A stretch of 50,648 nt of DNA, counting the filler, from a bacterium (GTDB lineage: Bacteria > UBA9089 > CG2-30-40-21 > SBAY01), in NCBI GenBank assembly GCA_040757115.1. It is 3 parts of 3 records of this genome, joined end to end, with 100 filler letters (N's around TTAATTAATTAA, not from the genome) between each part and the next. Parts side by side here need not be neighbours in the genome. Positions count along the whole stretch, not along the records: positions 17,033 to 33,804 come from JBFLYA010000076.1; 2 more parts are not named here. One strand, given 5' to 3'. Below the pieces are notes generated by a model, which did no database searches, had not been told where the DNA came from, and was given only the letters and a program-made list of their open reading frames with translations. Shown piece after piece: positions 10,618-37,688 of this stretch (positions are counted from its first letter, which is position 1; each line of letters opens with the position of its first letter). A program made the position numbers and the translations under genes.

Positions 10618-10812
10618 TTATTCCTCCTTGTCTTTAGGGATTAAAAAGTAGGCTCCTATTGTCAATAGGATAGCACATATTATTCCACTCATTAAGTAAA
10701 GAGGTTTGAAAATACCTGTTATCAAACTACCAATTATACCGACAGTTAGGATAAACTTTACTATATCAAAAAATAAATCAGCTAATTTTTCACGACGCTT
10801 GCGATTATACAT
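10618..10812 (-). CDS. Small two-helix membrane protein
   Basis: 64 aa, two hydrophobic segments, own consensus promoter. Confidence 0.7.
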   Translation of the reverse strand: MYNRKRREKLADLFFDIVKFILTVGIIGSLITGIFKPLYLMSGIICAILLTIGAYFLIPKDKEE

Positions 10813-10830
10813 AGTTTTTTCTCTTATTTA

Positions 10831-10859
10831 ATTATAACCAATATTTCTATGAATGTCAA
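10831..10859 (-). promoter_or_regulatory. Consensus sigma70 promoter
   Basis: TTGACA-17-TATAAT. Confidence 0.75.
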
Positions 10860-10892
10860 GAAAAAAATGCTACAAGAGGGAGGTAAGTAAGA

Positions 10893-11312: not shown

Positions 11313-11345
11313 AATTTCATCTGACTAAAAAGGAGGAATAAAGTC

Positions 11346-12770: not shown

Positions 12771-13048
12771 TTGGTAACTGGTGATTGGTGATTGGTGATT
12801 GGTAACTGGTGATTGGTAACTGGTAATTGGTAACTGGTGATTGGTAACTGGTAATTGGTAACTGGTAATTGGTAACTGGTGATTGGTAACTGGTGATTGG
12901 TAACTGGTGATTGGTAACTGGTGATTGGTAACTGGTAATTGGTAACTGGTAATTGGTAACTGGTGATTGGTAACTGGTAATTGGTAACTGGTAATTGGTA
13001 ACTGGTGATTGGTAACCATTTAACCAGTTACCATTTAACCAATTACCA
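12752..13048. repeat. Heptamer array GGTAATT/GGTAACT/GGTGATT with short inverted tail
   Basis: About 38 units, starting inside the last codons of KaiC-like 2. Confidence 0.95.
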
Positions 13049-13065
13049 AATAAAGGAGGACTTCA

Positions 13066-13449
13066 ATGGAAAAGATAAGGGAAGAGGAAATTTTGACAGC
13101 TAAAAAGGAAGAGGTGGTAGATATCTATGAAGATTTGCTTAAGAAGGTGTGGGATAGGATTGTACTGACATTAGGGGCGGTTACTGTAGTTGCTCTGTGG
13201 CGTAGAGTGATTAAACGGACTGCTAAAAAATATACGATTCTTCAGTACTTAGATGTTACCACTGAGGGAATTCAGTTCCAAAAATTAAAATCCAGAATAT
13301 CTGAGCAGGAAAAAAAGATTATCAAGGATGGGTTTGAAGAGTTGATATTGGATCTATTTGATCTATTAGCTGAATTGACCGGGGATATGATTGTTGATAA
13401 ATTATTTAAGAATGAAGTTACAACCAGGCTGAAAAGTATCCCAGAATAA
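13066..13449 (+). CDS. Small helical hypothetical protein, KaiC-like partner 2
   Basis: AGGAGG RBS; shares YE.L...W..I..TLG..T.VAL.RR...KY, EG..F, K.GF, TGD with 10893-11312. Confidence 0.85.
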   Translation: MEKIREEEILTAKKEEVVDIYEDLLKKVWDRIVLTLGAVTVVALWRRVIKRTAKKYTILQYLDVTTEGIQFQKLKSRISEQEKKIIKDGFEELILDLFDLLAELTGDMIVDKLFKNEVTTRLKSIPE

Positions 13450-13487
13450 CAAAAGTAGAGAGTAGAAAGTAAAGAGAAATAAAGCTG

Positions 13488-15080: not shown

Positions 15081-15183
15081 AGAGTAGAGGGTAGAAAGTA
15101 GAGAGAAAAGAAAACCATGCAAAAGATTAGCCAAAAATCTCTCTACTCTCTACTTGCTACTTATGATATAAGGAAGTAATCTA

Positions 15184-16758: not shown

Positions 16759-16932
16759 AAACCTGTCACAACTTCATACTAAATTGGTCATTTTGACCTA
16801 TAGCGGTTATTAACTGGAAGTTTACATAGGATAATATCCATAAATAAGGCATGAGAATAATCGTTCCGTTAGGAACATAATATCGGTAGGAATAGATAGA
16901 CAAATCAATCAGTTCCGTAGGAACGATATATT

Positions 16933-20690: not shown

Positions 20691-21890
20691 TTACTCATAC
20701 CGTAATGCGACAATAGGGTCTAGATTTGATGCTTTGTAGGCAGGATAAATCCCGGAGAACATCCCTATTCCTAATGAAAAACTTACTGCCAGAATGATTG
20801 AATTTAACGAAATTACAGTTGGTATTTTGATAAATATAGAGGCAATATTTGCCAGAAGGATTCCTCCACCTATTCCAAGACACCCTCCAATGGTGGATAT
20901 TGTTACCGCTTCAATTAAGAATTGTCCCATAATGTCTTTGCCCCTTGCACCAATTGCCTTTCTTATCCCTATCTCCTTTCTCCTTTCCAAAACAGCGGTA
21001 AGCATCATATTCATTATACCAATCCCACCAACTAATAATGAGATACAGGCAATTGCTACCCCAACTAAAGTAAGGGTTTGGTTTATTTGGGTATAAGTTT
21101 TTATAAATTCTTCTGAAGATTCTGCATTATACTTTCCTCTATTCTGGTGTCGTTTCTTAAGAAAATTAATAATGAAAGAAGAAGCCTCTTCAACACTTAT
21201 AGAGGGGATAAATCGAACCTGTAAAAAATCTATGACCTCCTTTTTGTCTTTCTCAGCTATTCTAATAGCAATGTTATAAGGGATAAAAATTGCGTCTCCA
21301 ACCCAACCTCCAATAGTCATTACTCCTATGTGCCTCCAGGCCATTACTCCAACCACTACGAATTTTTCCCTGCCTATTCTTATAACCTTTCCTATCGGAT
21401 TTTCTTCTTTAAAGAATGTCTCTGAGATATCTTTTCCTATTATGCAGACATGATGTTGTAATTTTATATCCAAATTATTAATTAATCGTCCCATAATGAG
21501 AACACAACCTTCACCATGGAAAAAGTCAGAAGAAGTTACACCATGAATACTCACTTTATCTTTAACCTTACCTTTCGTCACTATCTTTTCTATGTTAATT
21601 CTTGGTTTACTGCTTTCTACAATAGGCAATCGTTCAATTGCTCTTGCATCTTCTAATGTTATCCTTCCTTTCTGATTTGTATTGGGATCATACTCAGAAT
21701 ATATATCTATAGTATTGATACCTAACTCTTCCAACAGGTTAAGAACCTGTTTTTTTGTTCCATTCCCTATGGATATAAGGGAAACAATCGCTCCTATTCC
21801 AATAAATATACTTAATATGGCTAATATAGAACGTGTTTTATTTCCCCAGATGCCTATAAAGGCTATCCTTACCCATTCTCTAACTTTCAT
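20691..21890 (-). CDS. MacB/FtsX-type ABC permease
   Basis: VGGIGIMNMML..V.ERRKEIGIRKAIGA, ALRYE end. Confidence 0.93.
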   Translation of the reverse strand: MKVREWVRIAFIGIWGNKTRSILAILSIFIGIGAIVSLISIGNGTKKQVLNLLEELGINTIDIYSEYDPNTNQKGRITLEDARAIERLPIVESSKPRINIEKIVTKGKVKDKVSIHGVTSSDFFHGEGCVLIMGRLINNLDIKLQHHVCIIGKDISETFFKEENPIGKVIRIGREKFVVVGVMAWRHIGVMTIGGWVGDAIFIPYNIAIRIAEKDKKEVIDFLQVRFIPSISVEEASSFIINFLKKRHQNRGKYNAESSEEFIKTYTQINQTLTLVGVAIACISLLVGGIGIMNMMLTAVLERRKEIGIRKAIGARGKDIMGQFLIEAVTISTIGGCLGIGGGILLANIASIFIKIPTVISLNSIILAVSFSLGIGMFSGIYPAYKASNLDPIVALRYE

Positions 21891-22567
21891 CTATTTCTTT
21901 CACCTATTATTTTCCCATCTTGAAGGTAAATAACTCTTTTTGCAAAGGAGGCAATATGTTCATCATGGGTAACCACTAAGATAGTCTTCCCTTCTTGAGA
22001 TAGGGAAATGAAGATGGCCATAATTTCATTTCCACATTTAGTATCTAAATTACCTGTTGGTTCATCGGCTAAGATTAGTGTCGGGGTATTGGCAAGTGCT
22101 CGCGCAATAGCTACTCGCTGTTGTTCTCCACCAGATAACTCATTAGGTCTATGATTTCTTCTATCAAAAAGTCCTACCTTCTCCAATAAATATAAACTCC
22201 TTTCTCTACACTCTCTTCTCACCGCCCCTCTATAAACAAGAGGTAATTCAACATTCAAAAGGGCAGAATATTGTGGCAGTAAATTAAAACTTTGGAAGAT
22301 AAAACCTATTTTTTTATTTCTGGTCATAGCCACTTTGTCTCCATTGAAATTATTTACATATTCACCTTCAAAATAATGAAATCCTGAACTTGGAACATCT
22401 AAAAGTCCAATGATATTAAGTAAAGTTGACTTGCCAGAACCTGAAGGACCCATAATAGCTGTAAATTCCCCAGAACTAATTTGAAGCGAGATACCAGCTA
22501 AGGCACAAATATCCACACTACCCATTTTGTAAATCTTAAAGATATCCTTTAATTCTATTATTCTCAT
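21887..22567 (-). CDS. ABC ATP-binding protein (LolD/MacB type)
   Basis: [25 protein letters not shown]. Confidence 0.95.
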
Positions 22568-22573
22568 AGCCTT

Positions 22574-23824
22574 CTATAAATTCCTTTCCCTTACCTTTAC
22601 CCCAGCGGATATTTTCTCCTTATTTGAAGTAATGATTTTCTCTCCTTCTTGCAATCCCTTTTTTATAACCACCTCTACTTCATTACTTACGCCAATTTCT
22701 ACCTTTTTCATCCTGGCAGACGAACCTTCTACCGTATAAACAAAGTATCTTCCATCTTTGTTTATTAAGGCATTTTGAGGAATAACTAATACATCCTTCA
22801 TTTTGTCAATAGTTATCTCTATATCCGCCGATAAATTGGGTATCAAAAGTAAGTCCGAAGGGAATTTTTTTAATTCAATAATTGCTTCCATATAAGGATA
22901 TTCTCCGGATGTAGCACATGGAATAATCTTCATAATTTCGCCTTCTAAATAATTCCTATCCGCAGGTAGCCACTCCCCAGTAATAGTGGCTTTCAGACAT
23001 GGCTTTACTCTATTTATATCTAACTCCTCAATCTTAGCTTTAAGTAATGGTTTGTCTAAATTCATTATTTTAAATAGAGTTTCTCCAACCAGGACATATT
23101 CTTTTAAACCAACTATGTCTTCTATTATTACGCCATTAATTGGCGAGATTATTTCTGTCTCTTTTAACTCATTCTCCGCCTTCTTAAGAATTTCTTTATC
23201 TAATTTTAATTTCTTCTCTACTTCAGACAAATCATCCTTCCATACTTTCTCATAGTGTTCTATATCTACCTTCAATTGTGTTACATGGAGTTGTGCATCT
23301 TTAATTTCTTTGGTCAAAGAATCTAATTCAGGTAAAGAGATACTCTTTTTTTCATATAGCTCTTTGTAAATACATTCTTTCTTCTTAAGGTATTCCAAAT
23401 TAGTATTTGCTTTGATGAGTTCATTTTTTGCCTTTGTCAGTTCATAAGGAGAATCTTTTAATCTATTTAATGAATTCTCATCTTTGATGAGGTTAAACTC
23501 TGCCTCTTTTAATGCTACTAGATATGGGGTTTTATCTATTTTTAAGAGCACCTTATCTTTCTTTACATATTCACCCTCTTTTATTGTTTTGAGGATTATC
23601 TTTCCTGAGACAGATGTTTTAATTTCTACGGATTCTTCAGGAATTATTCTTCCTGTGGTAGATAAGGTAGAAATAAAATCCTTCTTTTTTACCGATGTTA
23701 CATCTACATTACAAATAGGTGATTTTTTAATGGTTGTAAAGATAAAAATGGGTATAAGTAATAGGATTAGTAGCCCAATTATTAAAATAGAAACTTTTTT
23801 ATGAAGATTGATTGATTTTTTCAT
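22574..23824 (-). CDS. Periplasmic adaptor / membrane fusion protein (MacA-like)
   Basis: N-terminal anchor, SG.I and SPING lipoyl halves, coiled coil, GLQEGEKI. Confidence 0.9.
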   Translation of the reverse strand: MKKSINLHKKVSILIIGLLILLLIPIFIFTTIKKSPICNVDVTSVKKKDFISTLSTTGRIIPEESVEIKTSVSGKIILKTIKEGEYVKKDKVLLKIDKTPYLVALKEAEFNLIKDENSLNRLKDSPYELTKAKNELIKANTNLEYLKKKECIYKELYEKKSISLPELDSLTKEIKDAQLHVTQLKVDIEHYEKVWKDDLSEVEKKLKLDKEILKKAENELKETEIISPINGVIIEDIVGLKEYVLVGETLFKIMNLDKPLLKAKIEELDINRVKPCLKATITGEWLPADRNYLEGEIMKIIPCATSGEYPYMEAIIELKKFPSDLLLIPNLSADIEITIDKMKDVLVIPQNALINKDGRYFVYTVEGSSARMKKVEIGVSNEVEVVIKKGLQEGEKIITSNKEKISAGVKVRERNL

Positions 23825-25209
23825 TTTTCCTCCGGTCCACTAATTTCAAAAAATTCAATTTTAGCTATTTGGTGGTCAAATAGAGTTTCTATCTTCTCTA
23901 AGATAATTTTATCCAAAGTAATTTGTTTATCACACAAATCTTCCTCTGCAATTATTTTTGCATCATATTGAGTTTGTGCAATGATAAGGTCTTGGCAGGC
24001 TATTTTTTCACTTTCTTGAAGCAGTTCAATTTGTCTTTCAAGATTTTTTATTTTAAGATACTTTTGGCGTGTAATAGATGTTATTTCTTTTTTTAGTGCT
24101 TCAAGGGTAAGTTGAGCGGCAGAATATTTATTTAAAGATGCTTTTATGTCAGAAGTAACCTCTCCACCAGTGAAAAAAGGTAAGGTAATATTTATTCTGA
24201 CATTCCATTCTTTATTAAAATCATCAAGACTTTTTTTTAAGTTTTCATCAGATCTATCATAACCATAATTCCCAGTAATCATAGCAGAAACCTTTCTGCC
24301 ACTGCGAGCTAAATTAATCTCTTTTTCTTTCAACCTAATTTCTAATTGCTGAACTTGAATTTGCAGGTTATCTTCTAATGCTTTAGAAATTGCTTCTTTT
24401 AACTGTCCTTCATAAGGGATATAGTCAGGTATAATATTAAAGTCAAATTCAGGTAAAGTATCAACATCAAGTAATTGTAAAAATTCTTCTCTTTTTCTTT
24501 CATAGATATCTTCAATCTTCATTAAATCATTTTTTGCAGTTAGAACCTCTAATTTTTTATTTAAGAGTAGAGAAGTGGTAATTATGCCCGCATCTAATTT
24601 AGATTCATACTTTTTTAGTTGTTCTTCTTTGATGTTTAATAACTTTTGATTTAATTCTATCATCTTCCTATATTTAAGTAATTCATAATAATTTCTTGAA
24701 ACTTGATAGACCAATTGTTTTTTTATTGATTCAAGATTAATTTTGGCTATTAAATATTGAATTTGTGCGATAGAAATATTGGTTGAAATCTGACCATTAT
24801 CAAGTAACCATTGGGTTAGTCCAATATTTATGTTATTAGTATATTTTTTGGAATCTTCAGCATAAAATATATTCTTATATACCTCACGGTAGTCTTGTGG
24901 TATCCAACTTGGAACATCCTCTACTGACTTTTGATATGGGCTAAATTCTGTCTTGTTGTAGCCAGAATCTATATTGAGATAAAGATGTGGTAACCATTTT
25001 GCCCATGCCTTTTTAATATTGGCTTCTAAAGAAGCAATCTCTTTTAATGCTGATTGAAGTTTTAGACTATTCTTCAAGGCAATTTGAATACCATCCTCTA
25101 AAGTTAAAGGTTGGTGATTTTTAGCTTCTTGAGCTAAATTTTCTTTTGGTGTTAATATTAAAATAAATATTAATATTAATCTTCCTAAAAAAAAGATTCG
25201 ATACAGCAT
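23821..25209 (-). CDS. TolC-family outer-membrane efflux protein
   Basis: Signal peptide, LTLED.IQIALKN, LPFFTGG, two-repeat layout. Confidence 0.88.
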   Translation of the reverse strand: MLYRIFFLGRLILIFILILTPKENLAQEAKNHQPLTLEDGIQIALKNSLKLQSALKEIASLEANIKKAWAKWLPHLYLNIDSGYNKTEFSPYQKSVEDVPSWIPQDYREVYKNIFYAEDSKKYTNNINIGLTQWLLDNGQISTNISIAQIQYLIAKINLESIKKQLVYQVSRNYYELLKYRKMIELNQKLLNIKEEQLKKYESKLDAGIITTSLLLNKKLEVLTAKNDLMKIEDIYERKREEFLQLLDVDTLPEFDFNIIPDYIPYEGQLKEAISKALEDNLQIQVQQLEIRLKEKEINLARSGRKVSAMITGNYGYDRSDENLKKSLDDFNKEWNVRINITLPFFTGGEVTSDIKASLNKYSAAQLTLEALKKEITSITRQKYLKIKNLERQIELLQESEKIACQDLIIAQTQYDAKIIAEEDLCDKQITLDKIILEKIETLFDHQIAKIEFFEISGPEEK

Positions 25210-25222: not shown

Positions 25223-25708
25223 TTAGAAAAAGATATCCTTTACCAAATCGAAAAATTTCTTTGATAAACTCTTTTTCTCTTTTTCCCCTTTCGTGATGAT
25301 AATAATTATAGTTACTACCACGCTGATAATTATAGCCAGAGTAGGGATAAAAAAACCAAAAACCCTATAGCTTATAGAAATTAATGCGTAACTTCCTATC
25401 AAAGTAATAAAAAGACCTATAAATATGGCACATATAATAAGTGGCTTGATAATAAGATTTAAGATAGTGTTATAGATGAGTTTGAGAATCTCTCCGCTCT
25501 TGAGTATATTTTTTTCTATGGTGGTAAGACTATCTTTTCTAAGACGAACTCGATAAATAAATATACCCACTAATATCCCTAAGGCAATAAAAAATATATC
25601 CCTTAGTGTAATCCAATGAGTGATTATATTTTCGATTAATATCTTTAAAGTGGCAATGCAATTGAACCACCATGGTAAATAATGATTGATGACATCATTT
25701 AACAACAT
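25223..25708 (-). CDS. Small multi-pass membrane protein
   Basis: Three or more hydrophobic helices; first gene of the efflux module. Confidence 0.65.
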   Translation of the reverse strand: MLLNDVINHYLPWWFNCIATLKILIENIITHWITLRDIFFIALGILVGIFIYRVRLRKDSLTTIEKNILKSGEILKLIYNTILNLIIKPLIICAIFIGLFITLIGSYALISISYRVFGFFIPTLAIIISVVVTIIIIITKGEKEKKSLSKKFFDLVKDIFF

Positions 25709-25845: not shown

Positions 25846-27618
25846 CTAACTAAAGTTATAAGAGCATGTGGCATCTTCTATTCTTTGAAACTGTCTTTGA
25901 AACAGACGATAATAATATCCCTTTTCTTTAATTAAATCAAAATGTGAGCCCATTTCTACAAGTTTACCCTGATGTAATACAATTATTTTCTCAGCGTTTA
26001 TAACAGTTCCCACACGATGGGCAATAATAATAGTGGTTTTCCCTTTAATAAGATTTATTAATAAGTTATGGAATTCTATTTCTGCTTTTGGGTCTAAAGA
26101 TGAGGTAGCTTCATCTAAGATAAATATATTGGGATTCTTTAGCAGGGCTCTAGCAATTGTAATAAATTGTCGTTCTCCTCCAGATAATTTTATTCCTCCT
26201 TCTCCAACCATTGTCTGATATTTATTGGGAAGGGCAGTAATAGAGTTATGAATCCCTACAGTTTTTGCCACTGCAATAATTTCTTCTTCACTTGCGTTTT
26301 TCTTACCAAAGGCAATGTTATCATAAATAGAGCCATTAAATAAAATTGTCTCCTGAGGGATATATCCAATCCTTTCTCTTAAAGAGCTAATAGTAACATC
26401 TTTAATATCCCGATTGTCAATTTTGACCTTTCCATTAGTTGGATCATAAAATCGAAGGAGGAGGTTTATCAAAGAGCTCTTGCCTGAACCATTAAGTCCT
26501 ACCAAAGTTACAATTTCCCCTGGTTTTATCTCTAAATTAATATCCTTTAAAGCAAAAAAATTATCTTCATAGCGCAGGGAAACTTTTTCAAATTGAATAT
26601 GTCCTTTTATTCTATTAGTGAAGGGGAAAGCATCAGATTTATCTTTTATTTCAGATTCAATAGATAAAATCTCATAGATTCTATCAAGAGAGGCTAATGA
26701 TCTTTGAAAATCAATATAAAAATTACTCACACCAGTTAGAGAATCTGTCAATAGATATAAATAGAATAATAATCCTCCCAGCGTTCCTGGAGTTAATAAC
26801 CCTTGATTAATCTCATATCCTCCATACCAGATAATGAGTATTAGGAAAAATGGATTTAAAAAATTTATTAAAGAACCAAAACCAGCATATATCTTTTCTT
26901 CTTTTAAAGAAGATGAAAGGAGATGACTACTTTCTTTTGAGAATCGGTCAATCATCTTATTTTCTTGAACAAATGACTGAATAATCTTTATGGAAGGGAA
27001 AAGTTCCTGAAAAAGGGCATTTATCTTGCCTGTTTTTACCCGGATATCATAGCTTATTTTTCTCATTTTTTCTCCAATTTTAACCGTAAGAAAGGCTATA
27101 ATTACTATTCCAGATATCATAATTATTGATATTTTCCACGAAAGTATAAAAATAATAACCAATCCTCCTATTGAGAATAGTGTATCTTTCAAAAAATAGA
27201 GGAAATCTAAAATGACTCCATATTGGATTTGGTTGAGGTCGTTAAATGCTCGAGAGCAAATCTCTCCTGACTGTCTGTTTTTAAAGAAACTGAGTGGTAG
27301 ATTAATTAAGTGAGAATAAAGGTTTTCCCTCAGATCTACCGTAATCCTTTCTCCAATATATCTTGCCAAATAATTTAGACAATATTGGAACAATTCCCTA
27401 AATAGTATTATGATTAGGCAAAGTAAACATAATTCTGAAATAACCCATATCCTTTTTCCTTTTTGCAATATACCATCAATAATTTCCTTTATTAATAAAG
27501 GAAACCATAAGTTCAAGATAGTTATAAAAATAAGGAATATAGAAACTATTACCATCTTAATTTTATATTCCTTCAGATAAATTAATATTATTGAGAATAA
27601 TTTTGTTGTATTATTCAA
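25846..27618 (-). CDS. ABC exporter, fused permease + ATPase, no peptidase domain
   Basis: TM domain, GLNGSGKS, LSGGERQ, LDEATSSLD. Confidence 0.93.
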   Translation of the reverse strand: MNNTTKLFSIILIYLKEYKIKMVIVSIFLIFITILNLWFPLLIKEIIDGILQKGKRIWVISELCLLCLIIILFRELFQYCLNYLARYIGERITVDLRENLYSHLINLPLSFFKNRQSGEICSRAFNDLNQIQYGVILDFLYFLKDTLFSIGGLVIIFILSWKISIIMISGIVIIAFLTVKIGEKMRKISYDIRVKTGKINALFQELFPSIKIIQSFVQENKMIDRFSKESSHLLSSSLKEEKIYAGFGSLINFLNPFFLILIIWYGGYEINQGLLTPGTLGGLLFYLYLLTDSLTGVSNFYIDFQRSLASLDRIYEILSIESEIKDKSDAFPFTNRIKGHIQFEKVSLRYEDNFFALKDINLEIKPGEIVTLVGLNGSGKSSLINLLLRFYDPTNGKVKIDNRDIKDVTISSLRERIGYIPQETILFNGSIYDNIAFGKKNASEEEIIAVAKTVGIHNSITALPNKYQTMVGEGGIKLSGGERQFITIARALLKNPNIFILDEATSSLDPKAEIEFHNLLINLIKGKTTIIIAHRVGTVINAEKIIVLHQGKLVEMGSHFDLIKEKGYYYRLFQRQFQRIEDATCSYNFS

Positions 27619-28777
27619 CTACCTTTATTCCTCCTTTAAACACTTTATTTATTAAGAATAAAACAAGCAAAGTAAATATTCTTATGACATCTCGAATATT
27701 CTCTGCCATAAAAATAGACGCTCCTATTGGAATACCATCTCTTCCCATTTTACTGAGTAACTTAGGCAAAAATTTATCATCAAAAAAATTCTCAACATCT
27801 TTAAACAATTTAAAGAATAATATTCTTTTAATCCTCCAAGGTTTTAAATCATCTAAAATTTTTAAAGGAATTGGAGCATCAAGTAATCTTTCGGCAAAAT
27901 AAAAAGTAAAATACATAGAATTTTTTATTCGATACTCATAAGATTTCTTAACTACATATTCCCAGTTTATCGTATAATAGGTAACAATATTTGTTATATC
28001 GCCTATAAGTTTCAATTCAAAGTTATGGTTAATAGATAGATGAGGACAGAGACTCAATAACATATCTTCGGGTGAAAGTATAAGTGTATTAACTTCCCCT
28101 AATTGAGAAAATTGGGCATTTTCCCATATATCTTTCATTTCTATTTTTTGAAATAAAACACCTTCAAATACTGTAGTATGAATCTCTAAAGGTATTTTTA
28201 CCTGTGGATGGATATACATAGGATGTAGCAGAATCTTTCTTTTTCTTTCTCTAAAAAGGACCCATAGTAGCCACTCTGCAATTTTTGAGACATTAATTTC
28301 TTCTTTATAATAAAGGACATAACCTAACTCATCTAACATTTTCTCACATTTGAACATATCCTCTTTGCGAACTAAAAGATCAATATCTCCAACTCCTCTT
28401 AGATATATAAGATTAGAATAGACTTTCTCTAAAGAATACCCTTTAAAAAGAATAACTTTTAGATTATTTTTATAGAATTTTTCTAAAATTCTATTTAGTT
28501 CCTTCTCATACCTTAAAGATTCAATAATGTACCTTTTATATAAATTCTCCAATTTCATTATAACTTCACATGATAATATCTCTTTTAGATTAATTCTCTT
28601 TAAATTGTAATATAGTAAAGCCTGAATATTATGAACCTTGGCCTTTTCTAATATATATCTCCAATTTAATTTTTCTTTTAAAAGTTCTATAACTTTATCA
28701 GATATATCCTTGTTGATTGTTACTCTTGTACAGTAGAGTAAAACTAAATTTTCTTTTAAAAATTTCTTTACTTTCAC
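27611..28777 (-). CDS. Nucleotidyltransferase family protein of the type found in lasso/PqqD clusters
   Basis: ILFKG..L..VY....R..GDIDLLV and LEIH motifs. Confidence 0.82.
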   Translation of the reverse strand: MKVKKFLKENLVLLYCTRVTINKDISDKVIELLKEKLNWRYILEKAKVHNIQALLYYNLKRINLKEILSCEVIMKLENLYKRYIIESLRYEKELNRILEKFYKNNLKVILFKGYSLEKVYSNLIYLRGVGDIDLLVRKEDMFKCEKMLDELGYVLYYKEEINVSKIAEWLLWVLFRERKRKILLHPMYIHPQVKIPLEIHTTVFEGVLFQKIEMKDIWENAQFSQLGEVNTLILSPEDMLLSLCPHLSINHNFELKLIGDITNIVTYYTINWEYVVKKSYEYRIKNSMYFTFYFAERLLDAPIPLKILDDLKPWRIKRILFFKLFKDVENFFDDKFLPKLLSKMGRDGIPIGASIFMAENIRDVIRIFTLLVLFLINKVFKGGIKVVE

Positions 28778-28801
28778 TGGTCAAATTTTCCAATTTTGAT
28801 A

Positions 28802-29428
28802 CTACAAAATTTCCCTCTTATTTTTCAGGAGTGTAGGATAAGGTAATTTTTTACTGCTGATTTTACTATACATGTTATAAATACCAAAGATAATTACCCA
28901 GGGGATTATAGTAATTATTTCGCCTATTTTACCTATAATCAGTGGGAAGTAGGATATTAAACATACCCTTTTTAATAAAGATATACATATCGCTACTGCA
29001 AATGAATATTTTGCTGTTAAATAAGAAAATATTTTTACTCTCTTATTCTCTAAATCTATTTTTAGTCCATTTTTTTTTATTATTTCTCTTACCTTACCTA
29101 TTACTTTTTCTTCTTCGACTAATTCATCAATAAAAAAAACAAAATCTCCTTTCGTTAAGAAACTTTTTCCCTTTATCTCTTGTTGTATTCTAATAACTCT
29201 ATGGCCAATAAACATCTCTTCTTCACCATAATGAACTACAATAATATCTCCTACTTTAATTTCCTCGGTAGGAATTTTCTTAATCAAGATCTTATCTGAA
29301 TAATTAATCCATGGAAACATACTCCACCCTTTTACTCCCGAATATAAAATTGCTCCTTTTTCTAAGCACTCTTTAGCTAATTCCAATTCAGTTTTTGTAT
29401 ATTTTTTGTTTTGTTGGACAAAATTCAT
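28802..29428 (-). CDS. S24/S26-family (signal-peptidase-like) peptidase
   Basis: GWSMFPWI (Ser), GDII, HRV (His), TKGD. Confidence 0.85.
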   Translation of the reverse strand: MNFVQQNKKYTKTELELAKECLEKGAILYSGVKGWSMFPWINYSDKILIKKIPTEEIKVGDIIVVHYGEEEMFIGHRVIRIQQEIKGKSFLTKGDFVFFIDELVEEEKVIGKVREIIKKNGLKIDLENKRVKIFSYLTAKYSFAVAICISLLKRVCLISYFPLIIGKIGEIITIIPWVIIFGIYNMYSKISSKKLPYPTLLKNKREIL

Positions 29429-29478
29429 TCTTCTCCTCTCCAGTAAGATTATAGTAAAGTACTATCTCCCACCTTTCT

Positions 29479-29522
29479 AAAAAGTCGCAGTTTACTTTGA
29501 TGAGTAAACTGCGACTTTTTTT
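29479..29522 (-). terminator. Perfect hairpin downstream of the precursor gene
   Basis: AAAAAGTCGCAGTTTACT-ttgatg-AGTAAACTGCGACTTTTT: 18-bp arms including the A/T tracts. Confidence 0.85.
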
Positions 29523-29539
29523 GTTAGACTACTTCGCTG

Positions 29540-29674
29540 CTACGACTTAGAGTTGACCTTACATCCATTCTTGCACCGACACGGCTTAGTTTTAATAGTC
29601 TTATTGCACCACAAAGCAGTCTCCTCAAATATTTTTTCTGAAATAATTTGAGGCGTTTCATATTGCCGTTTCAT
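29540..29674 (-). CDS. Putative RiPP precursor peptide, 44 aa (absent from the ORF track)
   Basis: MKRQYETPQIISEKIFEETALWCNKTIKTKPCRCKNGCKVNSKS*. RBS AAGGAGGTGA 6 nt upstream; start overlaps the end of the rSAM gene; YxxP leader motif; 4 Cys. Confidence 0.88.
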   Translation of the reverse strand: MKRQYETPQIISEKIFEETALWCNKTIKTKPCRCKNGCKVNSKS

Positions 29675-30731
29675 TTCTTATCACCTCCTTTCTCATTTCA
29701 GCTATCTCCTTGTCGTAAGGAGAACAGGCTAATAATCCATATCCTTCCAAAAATGTAGCTCCCATACATTTCCCACACAGATTAGCAATATCACAATTGT
29801 AACATTCTTCATCAATAGCACGCAAGTTTCTTATTTCAAAAAGTTTTTCTGATGTCCACCAGATATTATGAAATGTATCCTTTCTTAGATCTCCTACTTC
29901 TACCGGCATCCCTATACAAGGGAAAACTTTTCCAATTGGAGAAATTGCACATTGAATCGTTCCTGTTCCACAAAATTCTCGATATGGTCTTTCTTTAATA
30001 CTTTCCTTTTCTTCTCTTGGTATACACGCTTTTTCTTCTATCCATATACCAGTTCCCCTTTCTTTCTCATACACATTTTTAAGAAAAACAAATAATTCTG
30101 ACCTATTAAGTCTATACTTTGCGGGTTCAGAATCCCCATCATTTTTATAAGTGATATATACATCTGGCCTGGTTAATATTCCTAATTTTTCCCCCATTTC
30201 TTTTATTAATTTATATTCTTTAAAATTCTGCTTCATATATATAGTTTTTAAGATAACCTTTATTCCACTATCTTTCAATAATCTAATAGCATTCATAGTT
30301 TTTTCAAACGAACCATTTGTTCTTGTAATTTTATCATGAGTTAACGCTGTAGCCCCATAGAGACTAATTTCTACTGAAGAAACATGCAGTTCTTTTATCT
30401 TTCTTACTATTTCTGAATCTATTAAGGTTCCATTAGTATATAGAATAACATCAAACATATTTTCTCTCGCATAACTTATTATGGTAAATAAATCTTTTCT
30501 TAAAAAAAATTCACCGCCGGTAAATGTAATGGTAAACACTTTTTCTCCCGCCAGTTGGTCTATAATATTTTTAATCTCTTCTGTAGAAAGTTCCTCTTCT
30601 GGAGATTGAGAATATTTTACTACATAACAATGGATACATTTCAAATTACACCAACAAGTAAGTTCAATTGCTGCTGTAAGTGGAAAGCCCTTTTCCATAT
30701 ATTTTTTTGCTAATTCATCTTCAAGACCCAT
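29658..30731 (-). CDS. Radical SAM/SPASM peptide maturase
   Basis: CNLKCIHC, FTGGE, TNGT; SPASM cysteines CGTG...VFPC...CYNCDIANLCGKC...C. Confidence 0.93.
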   Translation of the reverse strand: MGLEDELAKKYMEKGFPLTAAIELTCWCNLKCIHCYVVKYSQSPEEELSTEEIKNIIDQLAGEKVFTITFTGGEFFLRKDLFTIISYARENMFDVILYTNGTLIDSEIVRKIKELHVSSVEISLYGATALTHDKITRTNGSFEKTMNAIRLLKDSGIKVILKTIYMKQNFKEYKLIKEMGEKLGILTRPDVYITYKNDGDSEPAKYRLNRSELFVFLKNVYEKERGTGIWIEEKACIPREEKESIKERPYREFCGTGTIQCAISPIGKVFPCIGMPVEVGDLRKDTFHNIWWTSEKLFEIRNLRAIDEECYNCDIANLCGKCMGATFLEGYGLLACSPYDKEIAEMRKEVIRNETAI

Positions 30732-30761
30732 TTGAAATCACCTCACTTTATCCAAGAAGAT

Positions 30762-31037
30762 TCAAATCATCTCTAAAACTATTAGTTTCTTATTGCATAA
30801 TTCTTTTACAAAGTCACAAACTTCTTTTTTAGCCACATCCTCTTCAACATTATACTCATTACAAATGATGTAAATAATCTCTTTGATAGTCATTTTCCCA
30901 TCTGCAAGTTCCCATATTCTAGTTCCTACTTCATTTAAGGAATGTAGAATTCCTTCTTCTGGAGACAAAATCGTGGCATTATTGTCAATTATCCTAAATG
31001 CTGTATTCATACTTCTAACTACATAACTATTGATCAT
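30762..31037 (-). CDS. PqqD-family RiPP recognition element
   Basis: 91 aa, LNEVGTRIWELADG, EYNV, F..EL. Confidence 0.92.
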   Translation of the reverse strand: MINSYVVRSMNTAFRIIDNNATILSPEEGILHSLNEVGTRIWELADGKMTIKEIIYIICNEYNVEEDVAKKEVCDFVKELCNKKLIVLEMI

Positions 31038-31878
31038 TTTTTATACACCTCCAAAAAGATTTATTAGGTAAGAAATGTAGTTCATAACAGGGAATTTTTT
31101 CTACCAAATTACAGCATAAAGTAAACAATTTGTTACTTATCTCACTTCTATGAGAAAAAAATATGATATTTGGCATAATTTCTACTACAGCCTTATATGG
31201 AGATAATTTTTTTAGATATACATCTTTATCTTTTTTTAATAGGAAAATTTTCTTAATCTCCGAAGAAATGTTAACATTATTCCCTTCCTCCCATAACATC
31301 CCCCAAAATGGAACTCCAAATATTTTATATCTTCTATTAATGTTGCGAATAAGAGTTATTTCATCGGTCAACAAAATTGTATCATCTTTTAATAAGTTAG
31401 CTATTGTTGACTTTCCTGCTTCAGAGGGGCCACAAAATACAAATCCTTCCTTGGAATCAATTACACTTGATGCATGTAACAAGATTCCTTCATAATATTT
31501 TGGGAATAACCAACCAGCACACATCCGTAAGAAATTTTCTACTCCCTCTATCTCTATTTCCTGAAGTTTTAATTCTCCTTCATTTCTTCTAAAATCTATT
31601 ATTCCTGAAAAATCCCACCTAAAAACGAAAATTTTGTCTTTTTTAGAGATAATTTTCAATTCCCGAAGTTCCTTCAATTTAATGTTCTTTTTAACTTGTA
31701 CATCTATTATAAAATTAGGTTCTTTCATTGATAAAAAAGTATTATATTTTCTTTTAATTAAATCCATCAACTCATAATTATCACCTCTAAAAACAAAACA
31801 TATTTCTCCAATTTCTATAGTTACCTTATTATAACCACAAATTTCATTTTGAAGTTTATAACTCTTCACTTCTTGCAT
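31027..31878 (-). CDS. HPr-kinase-like P-loop protein
   Basis: LLHASSV, GPSEAGKST, TDE, G.PFWG, C-terminal PCYEL.F. Confidence 0.82.
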   Translation of the reverse strand: MQEVKSYKLQNEICGYNKVTIEIGEICFVFRGDNYELMDLIKRKYNTFLSMKEPNFIIDVQVKKNIKLKELRELKIISKKDKIFVFRWDFSGIIDFRRNEGELKLQEIEIEGVENFLRMCAGWLFPKYYEGILLHASSVIDSKEGFVFCGPSEAGKSTIANLLKDDTILLTDEITLIRNINRRYKIFGVPFWGMLWEEGNNVNISSEIKKIFLLKKDKDVYLKKLSPYKAVVEIMPNIIFFSHRSEISNKLFTLCCNLVEKIPCYELHFLPNKSFWRCIKNDQ

Positions 31879-31901
31879 TTATGACCTTCCTTTCTCCTTA
31901 A

Positions 31902-32999
31902 CTATATTTTCATCTCATAGATTCGGTATCTTTTATATAACTTACCTCCCATTTTCTCTGCTGCTCTTTGGGTTAATATATTATCCTCCAGGATCCATGA
32001 AAACTCACATTGCTGATAACCTTTTTTTAAGGCTATTTTTAACGATTCTAAGTAGAGCAACGCCTCAAATCCTCTTCTTCTATATTCGGGTTTAACTCCC
32101 ATAGCTATCACACGCAAACTCTTAATCTTTCGGAGTCGCCATAATAATTTTATTGTATCCCACCAGTGTTTATTCAAATTTCTTAACGCCTCGTTATAAT
32201 TAGGCAAAGTCATAACAAATCCTGCAAAATTGCCTTTCACTTCTAAAATAAGTAGTAACTCTGGAACAAGTAAAGATTTTAATCGTTTTGCCATATACAT
32301 AATCTCTTCATCTGTCATTGGGACGAAACCCCAGTTGTCACGCCAACTGGTATTATAAATCTCTTTAATTATATTTATCTCTTGCGCAAAATTTTTCAAG
32401 TTTATCGGTCTAACCCGAGCTCTTTGTTTTTCCACTCTCTTAGATATTTTCTCCATATTTCCAATCTGTGCTGGTGTAATTTCAAAAAGATAGGCATATA
32501 AATCTTTACACTTTTCTAACCCATATTTTTCTATGTAGTCAATATAATACCGAGGATTATATGGCATCATTAAAAATGGTGGGGAATCAAAACCTTCAAC
32601 TAAAAAACCACATTCATCATTCATAGATGGATTTACCGGTCCTCGGATTATCTCAATATCTTTTTCTCTTAACCAATCACAAACTTCATCCAGCAACCTT
32701 TTAGCAAAAGCATAATCCCTTGAACACTCAAAAAAACCGAAGAAGCCACATTTTTCATTATGAAAACTGATATGATTATAATCAATAATTCCAGCAATCC
32801 GTCCTACTATTTTCTCTTTTTTTCTTAGTAAAAAGAGCATTCTTTCGGCATGATTCCACAAAGGATTCTTATTTCCAAGGATAAATTTGTACTCCTTAAT
32901 TTGAGGAGGAATCCAGTTCATATCACCTTTATAGACTCTCCAAGGAAACCTTACAAAATCAGTTAGGGATCTATCTTCCTTTACTACTTCAATATTCAT
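31902..32999 (-). CDS. Tandem-GNAT acyltransferase, bacterial ceramide synthase (bCerS/YghO)-like
   Basis: FP..VY....WIPP, GRI, GFFGFFEC, IRGP, G.LVEGF, MPYNP.YY, NWGFVP, SWILEDN; directly downstream of an SPT-like gene. Confidence 0.75.
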   Translation of the reverse strand: MNIEVVKEDRSLTDFVRFPWRVYKGDMNWIPPQIKEYKFILGNKNPLWNHAERMLFLLRKKEKIVGRIAGIIDYNHISFHNEKCGFFGFFECSRDYAFAKRLLDEVCDWLREKDIEIIRGPVNPSMNDECGFLVEGFDSPPFLMMPYNPRYYIDYIEKYGLEKCKDLYAYLFEITPAQIGNMEKISKRVEKQRARVRPINLKNFAQEINIIKEIYNTSWRDNWGFVPMTDEEIMYMAKRLKSLLVPELLLILEVKGNFAGFVMTLPNYNEALRNLNKHWWDTIKLLWRLRKIKSLRVIAMGVKPEYRRRGFEALLYLESLKIALKKGYQQCEFSWILEDNILTQRAAEKMGGKLYKRYRIYEMKI

Positions 33000-33015
33000 A
33001 TCAACTTGTATTTTT

Positions 33016-33678
33016 TTATCCTGGGATTAAATTTAATTTCTTTCCTACAGATTCGAATATTTCAAGAGCCTTATCTAACTGTTCATCTGTATGAGTAGCC
33101 ATATAAGTAGTTCGAATACGCGATTGCTCTTTGGGTACTGCTGGAGTAATAACTGGATTAGTAAAAATACCATTATCAAAGAGCAATTTCCACATTTGAA
33201 AAACTTGAAAATTATCACCAATAATAATAGGAATGATTGGAGTTTCACTCTTTCCGATATTAAATCCTAAAGTTTTAAGTTCTCTTCGCATCTTGTTCAC
33301 ATTCTCCCAAAGTCTCTGTCGTCTTTCTGGCTCCTTCTCGATAATTTCTATTGCTGTACTAATTGAAGCTGCCAAAGATGGAGGTAAACTTGCACTAAAC
33401 ATTAAACTTCTAGCATGATGTTTCAAATAATGAATTACTTCTTCATCTCCAGCAATAAATCCTCCTATTGAAGCCAATGATTTGCTACAAGTACCCATAA
33501 CTAAATCAACTTCATCTTCTAGCCTAAAATGTTCTAAAGTCCCTCTGCCATCCCTTCCTAAGATACCTGTACCATGGGCATCATCAATCATAATGCGGCC
33601 ATTATACTTTTTAACCAGGTGAACCAATTCAGGAAGTTTAACAATATCTCCTTCCATACTAAAAACTCCTTCACTCAC
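33016..33678 (-). pseudogene. C-terminal part of a serine palmitoyltransferase-like alpha-oxoamine synthase, cut by an IS
   Basis: EGVFSMEGD, DDAHG, MGTCSKSLASIGGF (PLP Lys), MATHT; similarity stops at the IS end at 33679. Confidence 0.8.
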
Positions 33679-33804
33679 TGTTAATGGCAAACCAAAATTG
33701 ACCCACTTTTGGCAATGGAAATTGACCCACCCATGTAAAAAAATCAGATCAAAAATGAACAAATTTGGCAATGAGAATTGACCCACCCCCGGATATAAAG
33801 ATTG
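33679..33804. mobile_element. IS21-family end
   Basis: Begins TGTTAATGGC; three subterminal repeats GGCAA-n-AATTGACCCAC at 33686, 33711 and 33767; runs into the contig end. Confidence 0.8.
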
Positions 33805-35217: not shown

Positions 35218-36279
35218 TTACTTATTTTTAGTTTTCAGCTCTTTTGAAGCAGAGATTAATGCAAAGACAAGTTCGTCTAAATCGCCATCCATAATAGTTT
35301 CAAGTCTGTGCAGACTTAAGCCAATGCGGTGGTCTGTAACGCGGTTTTGTGGGTAATTATAAGTTCTTATCTTTTCGCTTCTATCACCAGAGCCAACCTG
35401 AGATTTTCGTTCTTGAGATTGTTCTTTTCTTGCTTTTTCCTCTGCCTGGGCTAATAATTCAGCCCTCAAGACACGCATTGCTTTTGCCTTATTTTTATGT
35501 TGTGAGCGTTCATCCTGGCAGGTAACGACAAAACCTGTTGGTAGGTGTGTAATTCTAACTGCAGAATCTGTAACATTGACATGTTGTCCGCCAGGCCCAC
35601 TTGACCTGAAGGTATCAATTCTCAAATCTTCTGGTGAAATTTCTATATCTACTTCTTCAGGCTCTTTCAGGACGGCGACGGTCACGGCTGAGGTATGAAT
35701 TCTGCCACTGGCTTCTGTTACCGGAACCCGTTGGACTCGATGGGTGCCACTTTCAAATTTAAGTTTTTTGTATGCCTCATCGCCTTCCACACCAAAGATG
35801 ATTTCTTTAAATCCCCCGATACCAGTAGGATGAGAATTGAATATCTCTAATTTCCAGCCCTGTGAAATAATATATTTACTATACATTCTAAATAAATCAG
35901 CTACAAATAACCCGGATTCCTCTCCACCTGTGCCGGCACGGATTTCCATAATTATATTTCTATCTTCTTCTTCCTCATCTTTAGGGGCTAATAAATCTGT
36001 TAGTTTTTTTGCGATGGATTCTTTTTTTACTTGCAGGTTATTCAATTCTTCTTCTGCTATCTCTTTTAATTCTGGCTCAAGTGCCTCATTTAACATTACT
36101 GATAGTTTTGCTATTTCTTCTTCTACTGTTTTATATTCTCGAAATTTAAGCACAAAAGGTTCTATTTTCGCCCTTTTTTTCATAATTTCTTGATATAAAG
36201 AGAGGTTGGTTACATTTTCTTCTATCTGAGAGGTTAATTTTTCATATTCGGTTTCTAACTCTTTTAACTTTTCAAACAT
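35218..36279 (-). CDS. prfA: Peptide chain release factor 1
   Basis: GGQ motif, PVT discriminator, [11 protein letters not shown]. Confidence 0.97.
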
Positions 36280-36303: not shown

Positions 36304-36642
36304 TCATTCAAGACGATTTACACGAATGAGTTGACCAGAAATTTGGTGTTGTGAATTAATGGCTTTGTGGATTCGACGAGCCTGACCTACAAAATCAATA
36401 TCAAAACTACACGCAATTATGCCTGCATGATTTGGTTGTCCATTGTGCAAACGAATAAAATGTTTACGGTTTAGGGTTAAGAGAATTCGGTTTTCATCTC
36501 TGGCAAAAGTCAATACATCTTTATCTGGTATGGATTGTCCTGCTTTACCCGTTTCATAAATAGTGATAACATCGTGCCCTAATTGTCGGAGTTCTTCAAC
36601 AACAGGCAAAGGGAAGTTCTCATTAGCATACAATCGTGCCAT
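36304..36642 (-). CDS. PIN-like (DUF5615/Mut7-C-like) toxin
   Basis: LYANEN, GHDV, D..VL..A....RILLT, HAGII. Confidence 0.85.
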   Translation of the reverse strand: MARLYANENFPLPVVEELRQLGHDVITIYETGKAGQSIPDKDVLTFARDENRILLTLNRKHFIRLHNGQPNHAGIIACSFDIDFVGQARRIHKAINSQHQISGQLIRVNRLE

Positions 36643-36648
36643 TTTCCT

Positions 36649-36978
36649 CTAAGCCTCCTCGTTCTCACGAATTTGTTGTTCGATTTCATCCCGATGAGAG
36701 CGAAAATATGCCCAGGCATTAGCTAAATCTTCGGCTCGTAAAGTTGGATAACACCTTAATAAATCTGATTCGGTTGCACCCAATCGCTTTGCTTGAACCA
36801 ATACCCATACTGGAATTCGAGTGCGAACGATACATGCCTCTCCACCACAAACATTTGGAGTGCTTTCAATATCAGGAAAGGCATCACCAATATCACACAC
36901 CACCCATTGAAGCACCTGAGCCTTTTCTGCCCGTGTCATAGTGGATAACAATTTCTCTGCTTCCTGCAATGTAGTCAT
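36649..36978 (-). CDS. DUF433 antitoxin-like protein
   Basis: P.VCGG.ACI.RTRIPVW, YP.L..EDL..A. Confidence 0.88.
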   Translation of the reverse strand: MTTLQEAEKLLSTMTRAEKAQVLQWVVCDIGDAFPDIESTPNVCGGEACIVRTRIPVWVLVQAKRLGATESDLLRCYPTLRAEDLANAWAYFRSHRDEIEQQIRENEEA

Positions 36979-37688
36979 TTTTTATTATCACCTTTCCTTT
37001 GTTTTATATCGTCTAATACTTCCTCTCTCTTTGGTGGTTTTCCACAAGACATTTTATTTTCTGGACATGGACCTCGCCAGCATCCCGGGCCAGCATCTGA
37101 AAATAACACAGGAGCCACTTTTAATACTTCACTCAACATCTTATAAGCCATCCTGCGAATTTCCCATTGGGCGCGGTTACAACACCGTAACCTAAAGAAA
37201 TGAAGTAATTCTCTGGCATTCATCGTTACAATTATCTTTGTCTCGCAAGCCTCCGGGAAGACATATCGAGCATCTTCAACTGGAATTCCTGATTTTAACA
37301 GTTGTTTATAGGCATTTTTTGCCGTTTCCATCACTTCTATGAATAGCCTTTCTATGTCTTTGTTTTTCTGAATAGTATGTGGGGTTATATATTTTAACTC
37401 GTTATACTTGACATACCGCTGAGATTGTTGTGAATAGGAGGCAATTCGGTGTCTAACCAATTGATGGGTAGTTACTCGTGAAATTCCTTCTATGCCAAAG
37501 GTAAAGCTTATATGTTCAAAAGGTGAGTGATGTCCCATTACCATCAATTTATTGATAAAATCACTCACCTCTTTTTTCTTCATTTCCTTCCATAAATCAT
37601 CAATAGTCGATTCGGAATAACATAATTTAGCCGCCATAGCGACTAAAATTTCAGGATTGGGTGTATATTTAAGCAATTCTACCTTCAC
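36975..37688 (-). CDS. thyX: Flavin-dependent thymidylate synthase
   Basis: GH.SPFEH, QLVRHR.ASYSQQSQRYV, AQWEIR. Confidence 0.96.
   Translation of the reverse strand: MKVELLKYTPNPEILVAMAAKLCYSESTIDDLWKEMKKKEVSDFINKLMVMGHHSPFEHISFTFGIEGISRVTTHQLVRHRIASYSQQSQRYVKYNELKYITPHTIQKNKDIERLFIEVMETAKNAYKQLLKSGIPVEDARYVFPEACETKIIVTMNARELLHFFRLRCCNRAQWEIRRMAYKMLSEVLKVAPVLFSDAGPGCWRGPCPENKMSCGKPPKREEVLDDIKQRKGDNKK

Follow-up and report, generated by a model that had tools for sequence, protein, structure and literature searches.

What does the unannotated 44-codon open reading frame (ORF) that overlaps the 3′ end of a radical S-adenosylmethionine (SAM)/SPASM gene in assembly GCA_040757115.1 encode, and what would the enzymes encoded around it do to its product? 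The ORF lies in a stretch of 50,648 nucleotides, the window. A preliminary description of this DNA had proposed that it encodes a precursor peptide with a YxxP leader and a cationic Cys/Trp core. From the comparisons set out below, we consider it probable that the peptide is the precursor of a cassette for a peptide that is made ribosomally and then modified posttranslationally (RiPP), in which a module of the type found with linear polyphosphorylated peptides (LPPs) and phosphorylated lasso peptides is joined to a radical SAM/SPASM maturase. Comparison across genomes supports the view that the gene is real, that it belongs to a set of genes co-inherited across many phyla, that its leader motif is conserved, and that the cassette's RiPP recognition element (RRE) keeps the residues that contact such a motif.

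The ORF overlapping the radical SAM gene is conserved

The ORF, read on the minus strand from an ATG at position 29674, translates as MKRQYETPQIISEKIFEETALWCNKTIKTKPCRCKNGCKVNSKS, identical to the peptide quoted in the preliminary description (Table 1). The putative ribosome-binding site (RBS), AAGGAGGTGA, is separated from the ATG by 7 bases and lies within the radical SAM gene, which the start of the ORF overlaps by 17 bases; both features had been noted before. The same decamer precedes homologous ORFs in a genome of the same genus (G001) and in one of the same family (G002). Over the first 23 codons, the window and G001 have 5 identical codons, 7 with synonymous changes and 11 with nonsynonymous changes. 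An overlapping ORF in an alternative frame (29524-29661) was not kept, being broken by stops in G002 and having no start in G001. The conserved RBS, the synonymous changes at residues that are kept and the failure of the alternative frame go beyond what chance would give, and they indicate that the ORF is a real, conserved gene under selection. The peptide has no match in Pfam or NCBIfam, and a single-sequence search with it was also empty, as was one with the radical SAM protein; alignments were required for both.

Residues 22 to 44, which include neither Asp nor Glu, contain four Cys (C23, C32, C34 and C38), one Trp, six Lys and one Arg and end in Ser, the composition given in the preliminary description. 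The leader, which had been called acidic, is indeed negative in net charge but only mildly so: residues 1 to 21 hold 4 Glu versus 3 Lys/Arg, a net charge of −1.

The 49-residue ORF of G001 also overlaps the stop codon of its radical SAM gene, and the leader it has in common with the window peptide reads M-x-x-x-Y-x-x-P-x-I-x-SEK-x-FE-x-x-AL-x-C. Its core is very unlike that of the window peptide, yet it too ends in KS, and downstream lie a peptidase gene, a kinase-like gene, a PqqD gene, a PF14907 gene and an ABC (ATP-binding cassette) exporter gene. In G002, a kinase-like gene, a PqqD gene and the gene for a 42%-identical radical SAM protein are followed by a 41-residue ORF that begins MKKTYKTPQI and ends in Thr, and then by a PF14907 gene. 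In a genome of another phylum (G031), the gene for a 37%-identical radical SAM protein is followed by a 52-residue ORF with YGKPKL and a C-terminal Ser, and then by peptidase, kinase-like and PqqD genes.

Homologous peptides are encoded beside related radical SAM genes in many phyla

An alignment of the radical SAM protein (A1) led to 80 further loci in species-representative genomes, giving 88 loci in all, each ascertained through its radical SAM gene. The other window proteins were compared with the six-frame ORFs of these loci by single-sequence phmmer (E ≤ 1e-3) over a limited locus length, so that the resulting counts are lower bounds: at least 29 loci have a kinase-like gene, at least 23 a PqqD gene, at least 12 the peptidase gene and at least 13 a PF14907 gene. 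A kinase profile search was positive in 3 of 25 genomes of the phylum, namely, the window genome, G001 and G002. One locus (L004, in G025) has a gene for a 40%-identical radical SAM protein with no cassette around it.

We found family peptides in the loci by regular-expression scans and then with a profile of 26 of these peptides (A3). The profile matched in 26 of the 29 kinase-positive loci and in 3 of the 59 loci without a detected HprK-like gene, so the homologous YxxP peptides that the preliminary description had proposed to look for beside related radical SAM genes are present. The three kinase-negative loci with a peptide (L013, L015 and L025) are cut short by a contig or locus end; the remaining 56, which served as a control, gave no match in 20,601 frames. 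As for the three kinase-positive loci that were missed, the contig ends inside the radical SAM gene in L003, the locus ends at that gene in L033, and the third is L011.

Some loci depart from the usual arrangement. The sole peptide-like ORF beside the kinase, PqqD and radical SAM genes of L011 (7208-7303, plus strand) is Cys free, contains KYQKPQI and ends in GS; its match is weak (E 0.37). Two precursor genes are present in L027 (3656-3974), L018 (2620-3996) and L068 (3-1950), the second copy in L027 being truncated, with the leader retained and an end at Val shortly past the first Cys.

The shared features are a Lys-rich start, the motif [Y/F/W]xxPx[ILVM], an invariant Cys, usually two further Cys, and Ser or Thr as the last residue. 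In the alignment of 26 peptides, invariance is confined to the columns of P8 and C23. Counted from the motif aromatic residue, the first Cys comes 18 residues later in the window peptide, the G001 peptide and five more, and 20 residues later in most of the remaining peptides. Among 33 locus peptides, the C-terminal residue is Ser in 26, Thr in 3 and another residue in 4 (Val in L012, Cys in L016, His in L031 and Val in the truncated second copy of L027).

Searched against a collection of 5.8 billion proteins, the profile found 283 at E ≤ 1e-3. The best 120 of these have no Pfam domain, and all source names listed for them are "hypothetical protein"; they belong mostly to one Nitrospira-type subfamily and are therefore far from independent. 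A C-terminal Ser is present in 118 of them and YxxP in 119; the spacing is 20 in 118, and 116 have 3, 5 or 7 Cys (76, 21 and 19 proteins, respectively). That subfamily has a conserved C-terminal DSGxRxS. By record title, the hosts include Omnitrophota, Nitrospirota, Acidobacteriota, Thermodesulfobacteriota, Verrucomicrobiota, Cloacimonadota, Fermentibacterota, Bdellovibrionota, Elusimicrobia and Bacteroidota.

A quick, midpoint-rooted maximum-likelihood tree of the radical SAM proteins comprised 64 rows after 24 of the 88 had been dropped (matched stretch of <250 residues). Rows with a kinase or peptide make up 27 of the 34 on one side, with 86 in the Shimodaira-Hasegawa-like approximate likelihood ratio test (SH-aLRT), and none of the 30 on the other. 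The kinase/peptide label changes 6 times on this tree, compared with a mean of 20.9 when labels were shuffled, and 0 of 500 shuffles gave a number as low. Two of the seven unlabeled rows on the cassette side (L015 and L025) were later shown to have a peptide. This pattern indicates that the radical SAM gene is co-inherited with the cassette.

The cassette resembles those of LPPs and phosphorylated lasso peptides

The only RRE in the cassette is the discrete PqqD-type protein encoded beside the radical SAM gene. The profile of its family matched the solved structures of TbiB1 (9e-16), PbaB1 (6.5e-9) and LppB (9x8z_B, 7.7e-9), as well as PqqD proteins and TfuB1, and the alignment keeps the LN, EY and D/E-xxx-F elements with which lasso and LPP RREs contact YxxP (N35, Y62, E72 and F76 in the window protein). 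The earlier pairing of a YxxP leader with a PqqD-type RRE is supported by matches to both lasso and LPP RREs. From the other side, the best PDB match of the peptide profile was the leader of the fusilassin precursor, TfuA, and was weak (E 0.25); the LppA leader was not found.

LPPs were described for Bacillota by Popov et al. (Nat Commun 2026; PMC13381572), whose genes are lppA, -K, -B, -S, -D and -N. Their defining genes encode an archaeal-type peptidase resembling signal peptidase I (SpI), LppS; a discrete RRE, LppB; an HprK-like kinase, LppK; a nucleoside triphosphate (NTP) transferase, LppN; and an MsbA-like exporter. Their leaders share the consensus YxxPxVLxHQxIxFETxxS, in which Y-16 and P-13 are required for binding; in LppB, the motif is contacted by N33, Y60, D70 and F74. 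LppS (S29/H68/D93) cuts after T-1, only with LppB present, and Ser3 of the core is polyphosphorylated (PMC13381572).

The preliminary description had stopped short of the downstream peptidase, nucleotidyltransferase and exporter genes, which make the cassette LPP-like: the window has an SpI-like peptidase with Ser, His and Asp, an RRE in discrete form, a kinase resembling HprK, an NTP transferase and an exporter resembling MsbA. Its leader reads YETPQII ... IFEET where LPP leaders have YxxPx[V/I] ... I-x-FET, and its RRE retains those residues by which LppB grips YxxP in structure 9X8Z. In contrast to LPP cassettes, that of the window adds a radical SAM/SPASM gene translationally coupled to the precursor gene. 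The window leader also lacks the His and Gln of the LPP consensus and so departs from it, the invariant Cys (C23, 18 residues past the Tyr in the window subgroup) stands in the place of the phosphorylated Ser3, and the cores are short and Cys rich with a conserved C-terminal Ser. Whereas LPPs were called restricted to Bacillota, the hosts here are diderms or uncultured phyla, and the window host is not one of the Bacillota. The text of PMC13381572 does not contain "radical," "rSAM" or "SPASM," and "Radical_SAM" occurs once, in a supplementary list of domain names, so there may be rare radical SAM neighbors within that data set. The accession PF14907 is absent from the accessible supplements, and we liken the window gene to lppN as an NTP transferase only.

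In the window peptidase, S36, H76-R77 and G94-D95 are conserved in 13 homologues, and the protein ends in a hydrophobic tail; we regard it as a candidate leader peptidase. Where LppA has FET, the family has E-[E/Q]-[T/A], and by analogy with the LPP site (FET↓A) we expect the leader to be cut after T19 or A20, which would place the boundary after L21 that had been guessed earlier one or two residues too late. In L010, a single open frame (4219-5895, plus strand) comprises a signal-peptidase-like part (4246-4701) and a PF14907 nucleotidyltransferase part (4705-5694). Such a fusion suggests that the peptidase and the nucleotidyltransferase act in the same pathway, and fusions of the B2 protease with a nucleotidyltransferase have been reported in lasso clusters (PMC8498205).

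In lasso systems of the paeninodin type, the still linear precursor receives a phosphate on its C-terminal Ser from HprK homologues, and in pseudomycoidin a nucleotidyltransferase adds hexoses to that phosphate (PMC8498205). The window shares with these systems (PadeK; PsmK/PsmN) a YxxP-type leader, a discrete PqqD/RRE for which TbiB1 is the best solved match, an HprK homologue, a nucleotidyltransferase and a precursor that ends in Ser, but it has a radical SAM enzyme and a signal-peptidase-like protease in place of the cyclase and the B2 protease. Because none of the 14 cluster proteins matches an Asn-synthetase-like lasso cyclase or a B2 cysteine protease in Pfam or NCBIfam, the cluster is not a lasso cluster.

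Two further kinds of system share part of this architecture. SynChlorMet (SCM) cassettes likewise combine HprK-related, PqqD-like and radical SAM/SPASM proteins, and their models give weak matches in the window: 31.6 bits for ScmC (TIGR04249; cutoff, 125), 37.6 for ScmD (TIGR04248; cutoff, 100), 104.9 for ScmE (TIGR04250; cutoff, 400) and 86.9 for ScmF (TIGR04251; cutoff, 400). With scores so far below the cutoffs and a single radical SAM gene where SCM has two, this is not an SCM cassette. Sactipeptide and ranthipeptide systems (SkfB, CteB, AlbA and PapB) share a radical SAM enzyme with the full SPASM Cys set and Cys donors in the core, of which the window peptide has four. They differ in that no maturase model is reached at its cutoff here and that the RRE is discrete rather than fused; thioethers are a prediction here. 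To our knowledge, a kinase, a nucleotidyltransferase and an SpI-like peptidase are not part of known sactipeptide or ranthipeptide clusters.

The radical SAM enzyme may join core Cys residues as thioethers

The CxxxCxxC motif of the radical SAM protein is formed by C28, C32 and C35, which leaves no room for an N-terminal RRE domain, and eight conserved C-terminal Cys (C254 to C336) make up a full SPASM set. The closest solved relatives of the A1 profile are SkfB (8.7e-28), PqqE (3e-17), CteB (2.5e-15), cytosylglucuronate decarboxylase, anSME (1e-13) and SuiB. Two observations make us lean toward the view that the enzyme joins core Cys residues as thioethers: the cores retain several Cys, usually an odd number of them, and SkfB and CteB are closely related to the enzyme. 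An odd number of Cys does not fit disulfides alone. The Trp cross-link that the preliminary description had offered as the alternative to Cys thioethers was considered as a family trait and rejected: W22 is not conserved, and such a link is unlikely to define the family.

A different reaction on a genuine precursor is less likely but has evidence of its own. The enzyme could oxidize the invariant Cys to formylglycine, as anSME-like enzymes would, form a C-C or C-O cross-link, epimerize residues, or act at the C terminus in the manner of MftC. The radical SAM protein falls below the cutoff of every curated maturase model, including those for sactipeptides and ranthipeptides (StsB, 117.9 bits against a cutoff of 625; AlbA, 92.5 against 850; SkfB, 83.4 against 300; PapB, 75.9 against 340), and its best NCBIfam scores are those of the heme enzymes AhbD and NirJ2 and of MftC. 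Furthermore, anSME and PqqE are among its closest solved relatives, and the pattern of one Cys held in register with the leader motif and the rest varying in position would suit a reaction at a single site. Against these alternatives, SkfB ranks first and CteB third among the solved matches, and several Cys are kept, their number odd in nearly all of the best 120 relatives; under single-site chemistry, the extra Cys would be idle. Weighing both sides, we prefer thioethers.

The kinase may phosphorylate the C-terminal Ser

The kinase is predicted to adopt its fold with high model confidence (pLDDT score, 91.6). Foldseek placed it with ATP-dependent phosphoenolpyruvate carboxykinases (5e-9, the best match) and with HprK/P structures (1knx, 2e-6; 1ko7; 3tqf), all of one fold. 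Among the 28 members of its family, HprK_rel_B matched 26, HprK_rel_A 18 and ScmC 17, all below the cutoff, and Pfam Hpr_kinase_C matched 7; the P-loop GxxGxGKS/T, the Asp that follows it and H135 are conserved. Phosphorylation of the terminal Ser, as suggested in the preliminary description, is plausible, given the prevalence of Ser or Thr at this position among the locus peptides and the best 120 relatives. We favor Ser44 as the more likely site, since it is the only conserved hydroxyl residue and the lasso systems provide a precedent.

An unlikely alternative, though one with a concrete basis, is that the kinase modifies a residue close to where the leader is cut, in the manner of LppK with core Ser3, or several sites, and that the C-terminal Ser serves the radical SAM enzyme, the nucleotidyltransferase or export. 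The LPP kinase targets Ser3 and not the C terminus, and this phospho-Ser lies 18 residues past the motif Tyr by the consensus and numbering in PMC13381572, the same distance at which the window peptide and six relatives have the invariant Cys. In addition, three peptides encoded next to kinases whose P-loop is intact (those of L012, L016 and L031, ending in Val, Cys and His) have neither Ser nor Thr at the C terminus. What speaks for Ser44 instead is that the region around the predicted cleavage site has no conserved Ser or Thr and that the sole conserved hydroxyl is that of the C-terminal residue, the site used by the HprK homologues of lasso clusters (PMC8498205).

Weighing the reading as a whole

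It is very improbable that the peptide gives a plain linear product of the LPP type and that the radical SAM gene is an unrelated neighbor with another substrate. In its favor, the set of five LPP core genes is complete even with the radical SAM gene left out of account, and LPPs are linear products (PMC13381572). Against this, the peptide gene starts within the radical SAM gene in both the window and G001, the radical SAM proteins with a kinase or peptide as neighbor group together in a single region of the tree while spanning many phyla, the enzyme itself lacks an RRE and the adjacent discrete PqqD is the sole one present, and an invariant Cys occupies the place of the LPP Ser. A chance, untranslated ORF is hardly credible: although the ORF is short and was missed by Pfam, NCBIfam and the single-sequence search, the conserved RBS, the synonymous substitutions, the frame-specific family and the 283 profile relatives already contradict that explanation.

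Several points nevertheless weigh against a radical SAM-modified, terminally phosphorylated RiPP of the kind we propose. Of the loci scored with the peptide profile, 26 had been used to construct it, so that only the extra matches (L015, L025 and the second copies in L018, L027 and L068) and the empty controls are independent; related genomes are nonindependent samples; and the tree is a quick one that leaves out the rows with short matched stretches. To these are added the maturase scores, the three exceptional C termini and the Ser3 specificity of the LPP kinase given above.

A proposed pathway and its novelty

In the pathway that we propose, the 91-residue RRE would bind Y5-x-x-P8-x-I10 and present the peptide. 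The radical SAM/SPASM enzyme, having no RRE of its own, would then form cross-links in the core, most likely thioethers, by way of the invariant C23 and the remaining Cys. The HprK-like kinase would phosphorylate the side chain of Ser44, as in paeninodin, and the nucleotidyltransferase may decorate the Ser44 phosphate, as in pseudomycoidin. The Ser/His/Asp peptidase would take off the leader after T19 or A20, and the cationic product would leave by the ABC exporter, perhaps also by the adjacent MacAB-TolC-type pump, which is brought in on the basis of gene order.

We tentatively suggest that the family represents an undescribed RiPP class, in which a lasso/LPP-type module for recognition, phosphorylation, nucleotidyl transfer and signal-peptidase-like cleavage is combined with a SPASM radical SAM enzyme and the product would bear thioether bridges and a phospho(glyco)sylated C terminus. 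Such a class would count its members in the hundreds, with Nitrospira as the foremost host and further members in Omnitrophota, Acidobacteriota, Thermodesulfobacteriota and other uncultured diderm lineages. Given the register that the invariant Cys shares with the polyphosphorylated Ser, LPPs and the present family may be two outcomes of one ancestral RRE-guided site. In the literature outside subscription-only sources, we found no description of a cassette that unites an HprK-like kinase, an SpI-like peptidase and a radical SAM enzyme; an HPr-kinase passage that did come up concerned lasso clusters, and no mention of SynChlorMet was found. The accessible text of PMC12710340 makes no mention of a kinase, a nucleotidyltransferase, a signal peptidase, Nitrospir- or Omnitroph-.

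If this view is correct, the tailoring module of LPPs and phosphorylated lasso peptides reaches beyond Bacillota and has been recombined with radical SAM chemistry in numerous environmental phyla, with the nitrifier genus Nitrospira among the hosts. A 44-residue substrate and five enzymes would form a small testable system in which one could ask how one RRE serves three or four enzymes, how a signal-peptidase-like leader peptidase recognizes its substrate, and what a cross-linked cationic peptide gains from being phosphorylated or glycosylated at its terminus. The precursor profile, with its 283 database matches, would be a further gain.

Features of the cluster and neighboring genes

Table 1. 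Features of the precursor gene and surrounding cluster (window positions unless residues are given)
Feature	Position	Strand	Details
Precursor peptide gene	29540..29674	(-)	44 aa + stop; unannotated
Predicted leader	Residues ~1-19/20		Y5-x-x-P8-x-I10, IFEET
Predicted core	Residues ~20/21-44		C23 (family invariant), C32, C34, C38, C-terminal S44
RBS	29681..29690	(-)	Inside 3′ end of radical SAM gene
Hairpin	29479..29520	(-)	Perfect 18-bp stem, 6-base loop; begins 19 bases past precursor stop codon
Radical SAM/SPASM enzyme	29658..30731	(-)	357 aa; Radical_SAM 3e-28, SPASM 4e-8; no NCBIfam model at cutoff
Discrete PqqD-type RRE	30762..31037	(-)	91 aa; PF05402 3.6e-17; lasso_PqqD_Bac 52 bits (cutoff 80)
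HprK-related P-loop kinase	31027..31878	(-)	283 aa; GPSEAGKST; weak ScmC, HprK_rel_A and HprK_rel_B matches
Archaeal/endoplasmic reticulum-type signal-peptidase-I-like protease	28802..29428	(-)	208 aa; TIGR02228 59.6 bits (above cutoff 51.85)
PF14907 (NTP_transf_5) nucleotidyltransferase	27611..28777	(-)	388 aa; 1.1e-45
MsbA-like ABC exporter	25846..27618	(-)	590 aa; permease + ATPase; ABC_membrane + ABC_tran; TIGR02204 MsbA_rel 441 bits (below cutoff)
Membrane protein	25223-25708	(-)	161 aa; no family
TolC-like protein, HlyD-like adaptor, MacB-type ATPase, MacB-type permease	20691-25209	(-)	Pfam/NCBIfam
GNAT-domain protein	31902..32999	(-)	365 aa; Acetyltransf_1 1.2e-10; just upstream of kinase gene

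The hairpin has a folding energy of −27.3 kcal/mol (z = −6.0), equaled by none of 200 shuffles. It is probably an intrinsic terminator or attenuator, or an mRNA stabilizer, between the precursor gene and the downstream peptidase gene; a consensus terminator scan of 28700-33300 listed no terminator, this hairpin included.

The genes between 20691 and 25708 possibly provide an outer-membrane export or immunity route, and their membership of the cassette is uncertain. A MacB-type permease ORF is present in G001, where its end lies immediately upstream of the kinase gene. That genome has two kinase-like genes, one before the 5′ part of a radical SAM gene at the end of contig C132 (L095) and the other between the peptidase and PqqD genes on contig C755 (L094, 1-7859), which starts with a 3′ radical SAM part; the two contigs may be adjacent.

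The GNAT gene was considered as a cassette member and rejected, since none of the other 87 loci has a homologue; it is probably not part of the cassette. Beyond it, an ORF at 33016-33786 (minus strand) encodes an aminotransferase of the serine-palmitoyltransferase/KBL type that covers model positions 175 to 395 of 395, with about 35 unrelated-looking residues at its start; it is probably a 5′-truncated gene.

The source genome comprises 4.3 Mb in 462 contigs, and the window is made of joined contigs: positions 1-16932 are contig C436, and the cluster is on C437 (offset, 17029). Release factor RF1 matched proteins of many phyla at no more than 59% identity. A search for sequencing runs gave a single DNA data set, a groundwater metagenome that may be the source, and no RNA. 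Elsewhere in the window, a DUF433/DUF5615 gene pair (36304-36978, minus strand), which may be toxin-antitoxin-like, lies between a thyX-like gene (36975-37688) and prfA (35218-36279). At the far end, the large ORF nearest to the cassette, which begins some 14 kb away from the closest cassette gene with housekeeping genes in between, has at least 1321 codons and a Big_7 Ig-like domain (46685-50647, plus strand) and runs off the end of the window.

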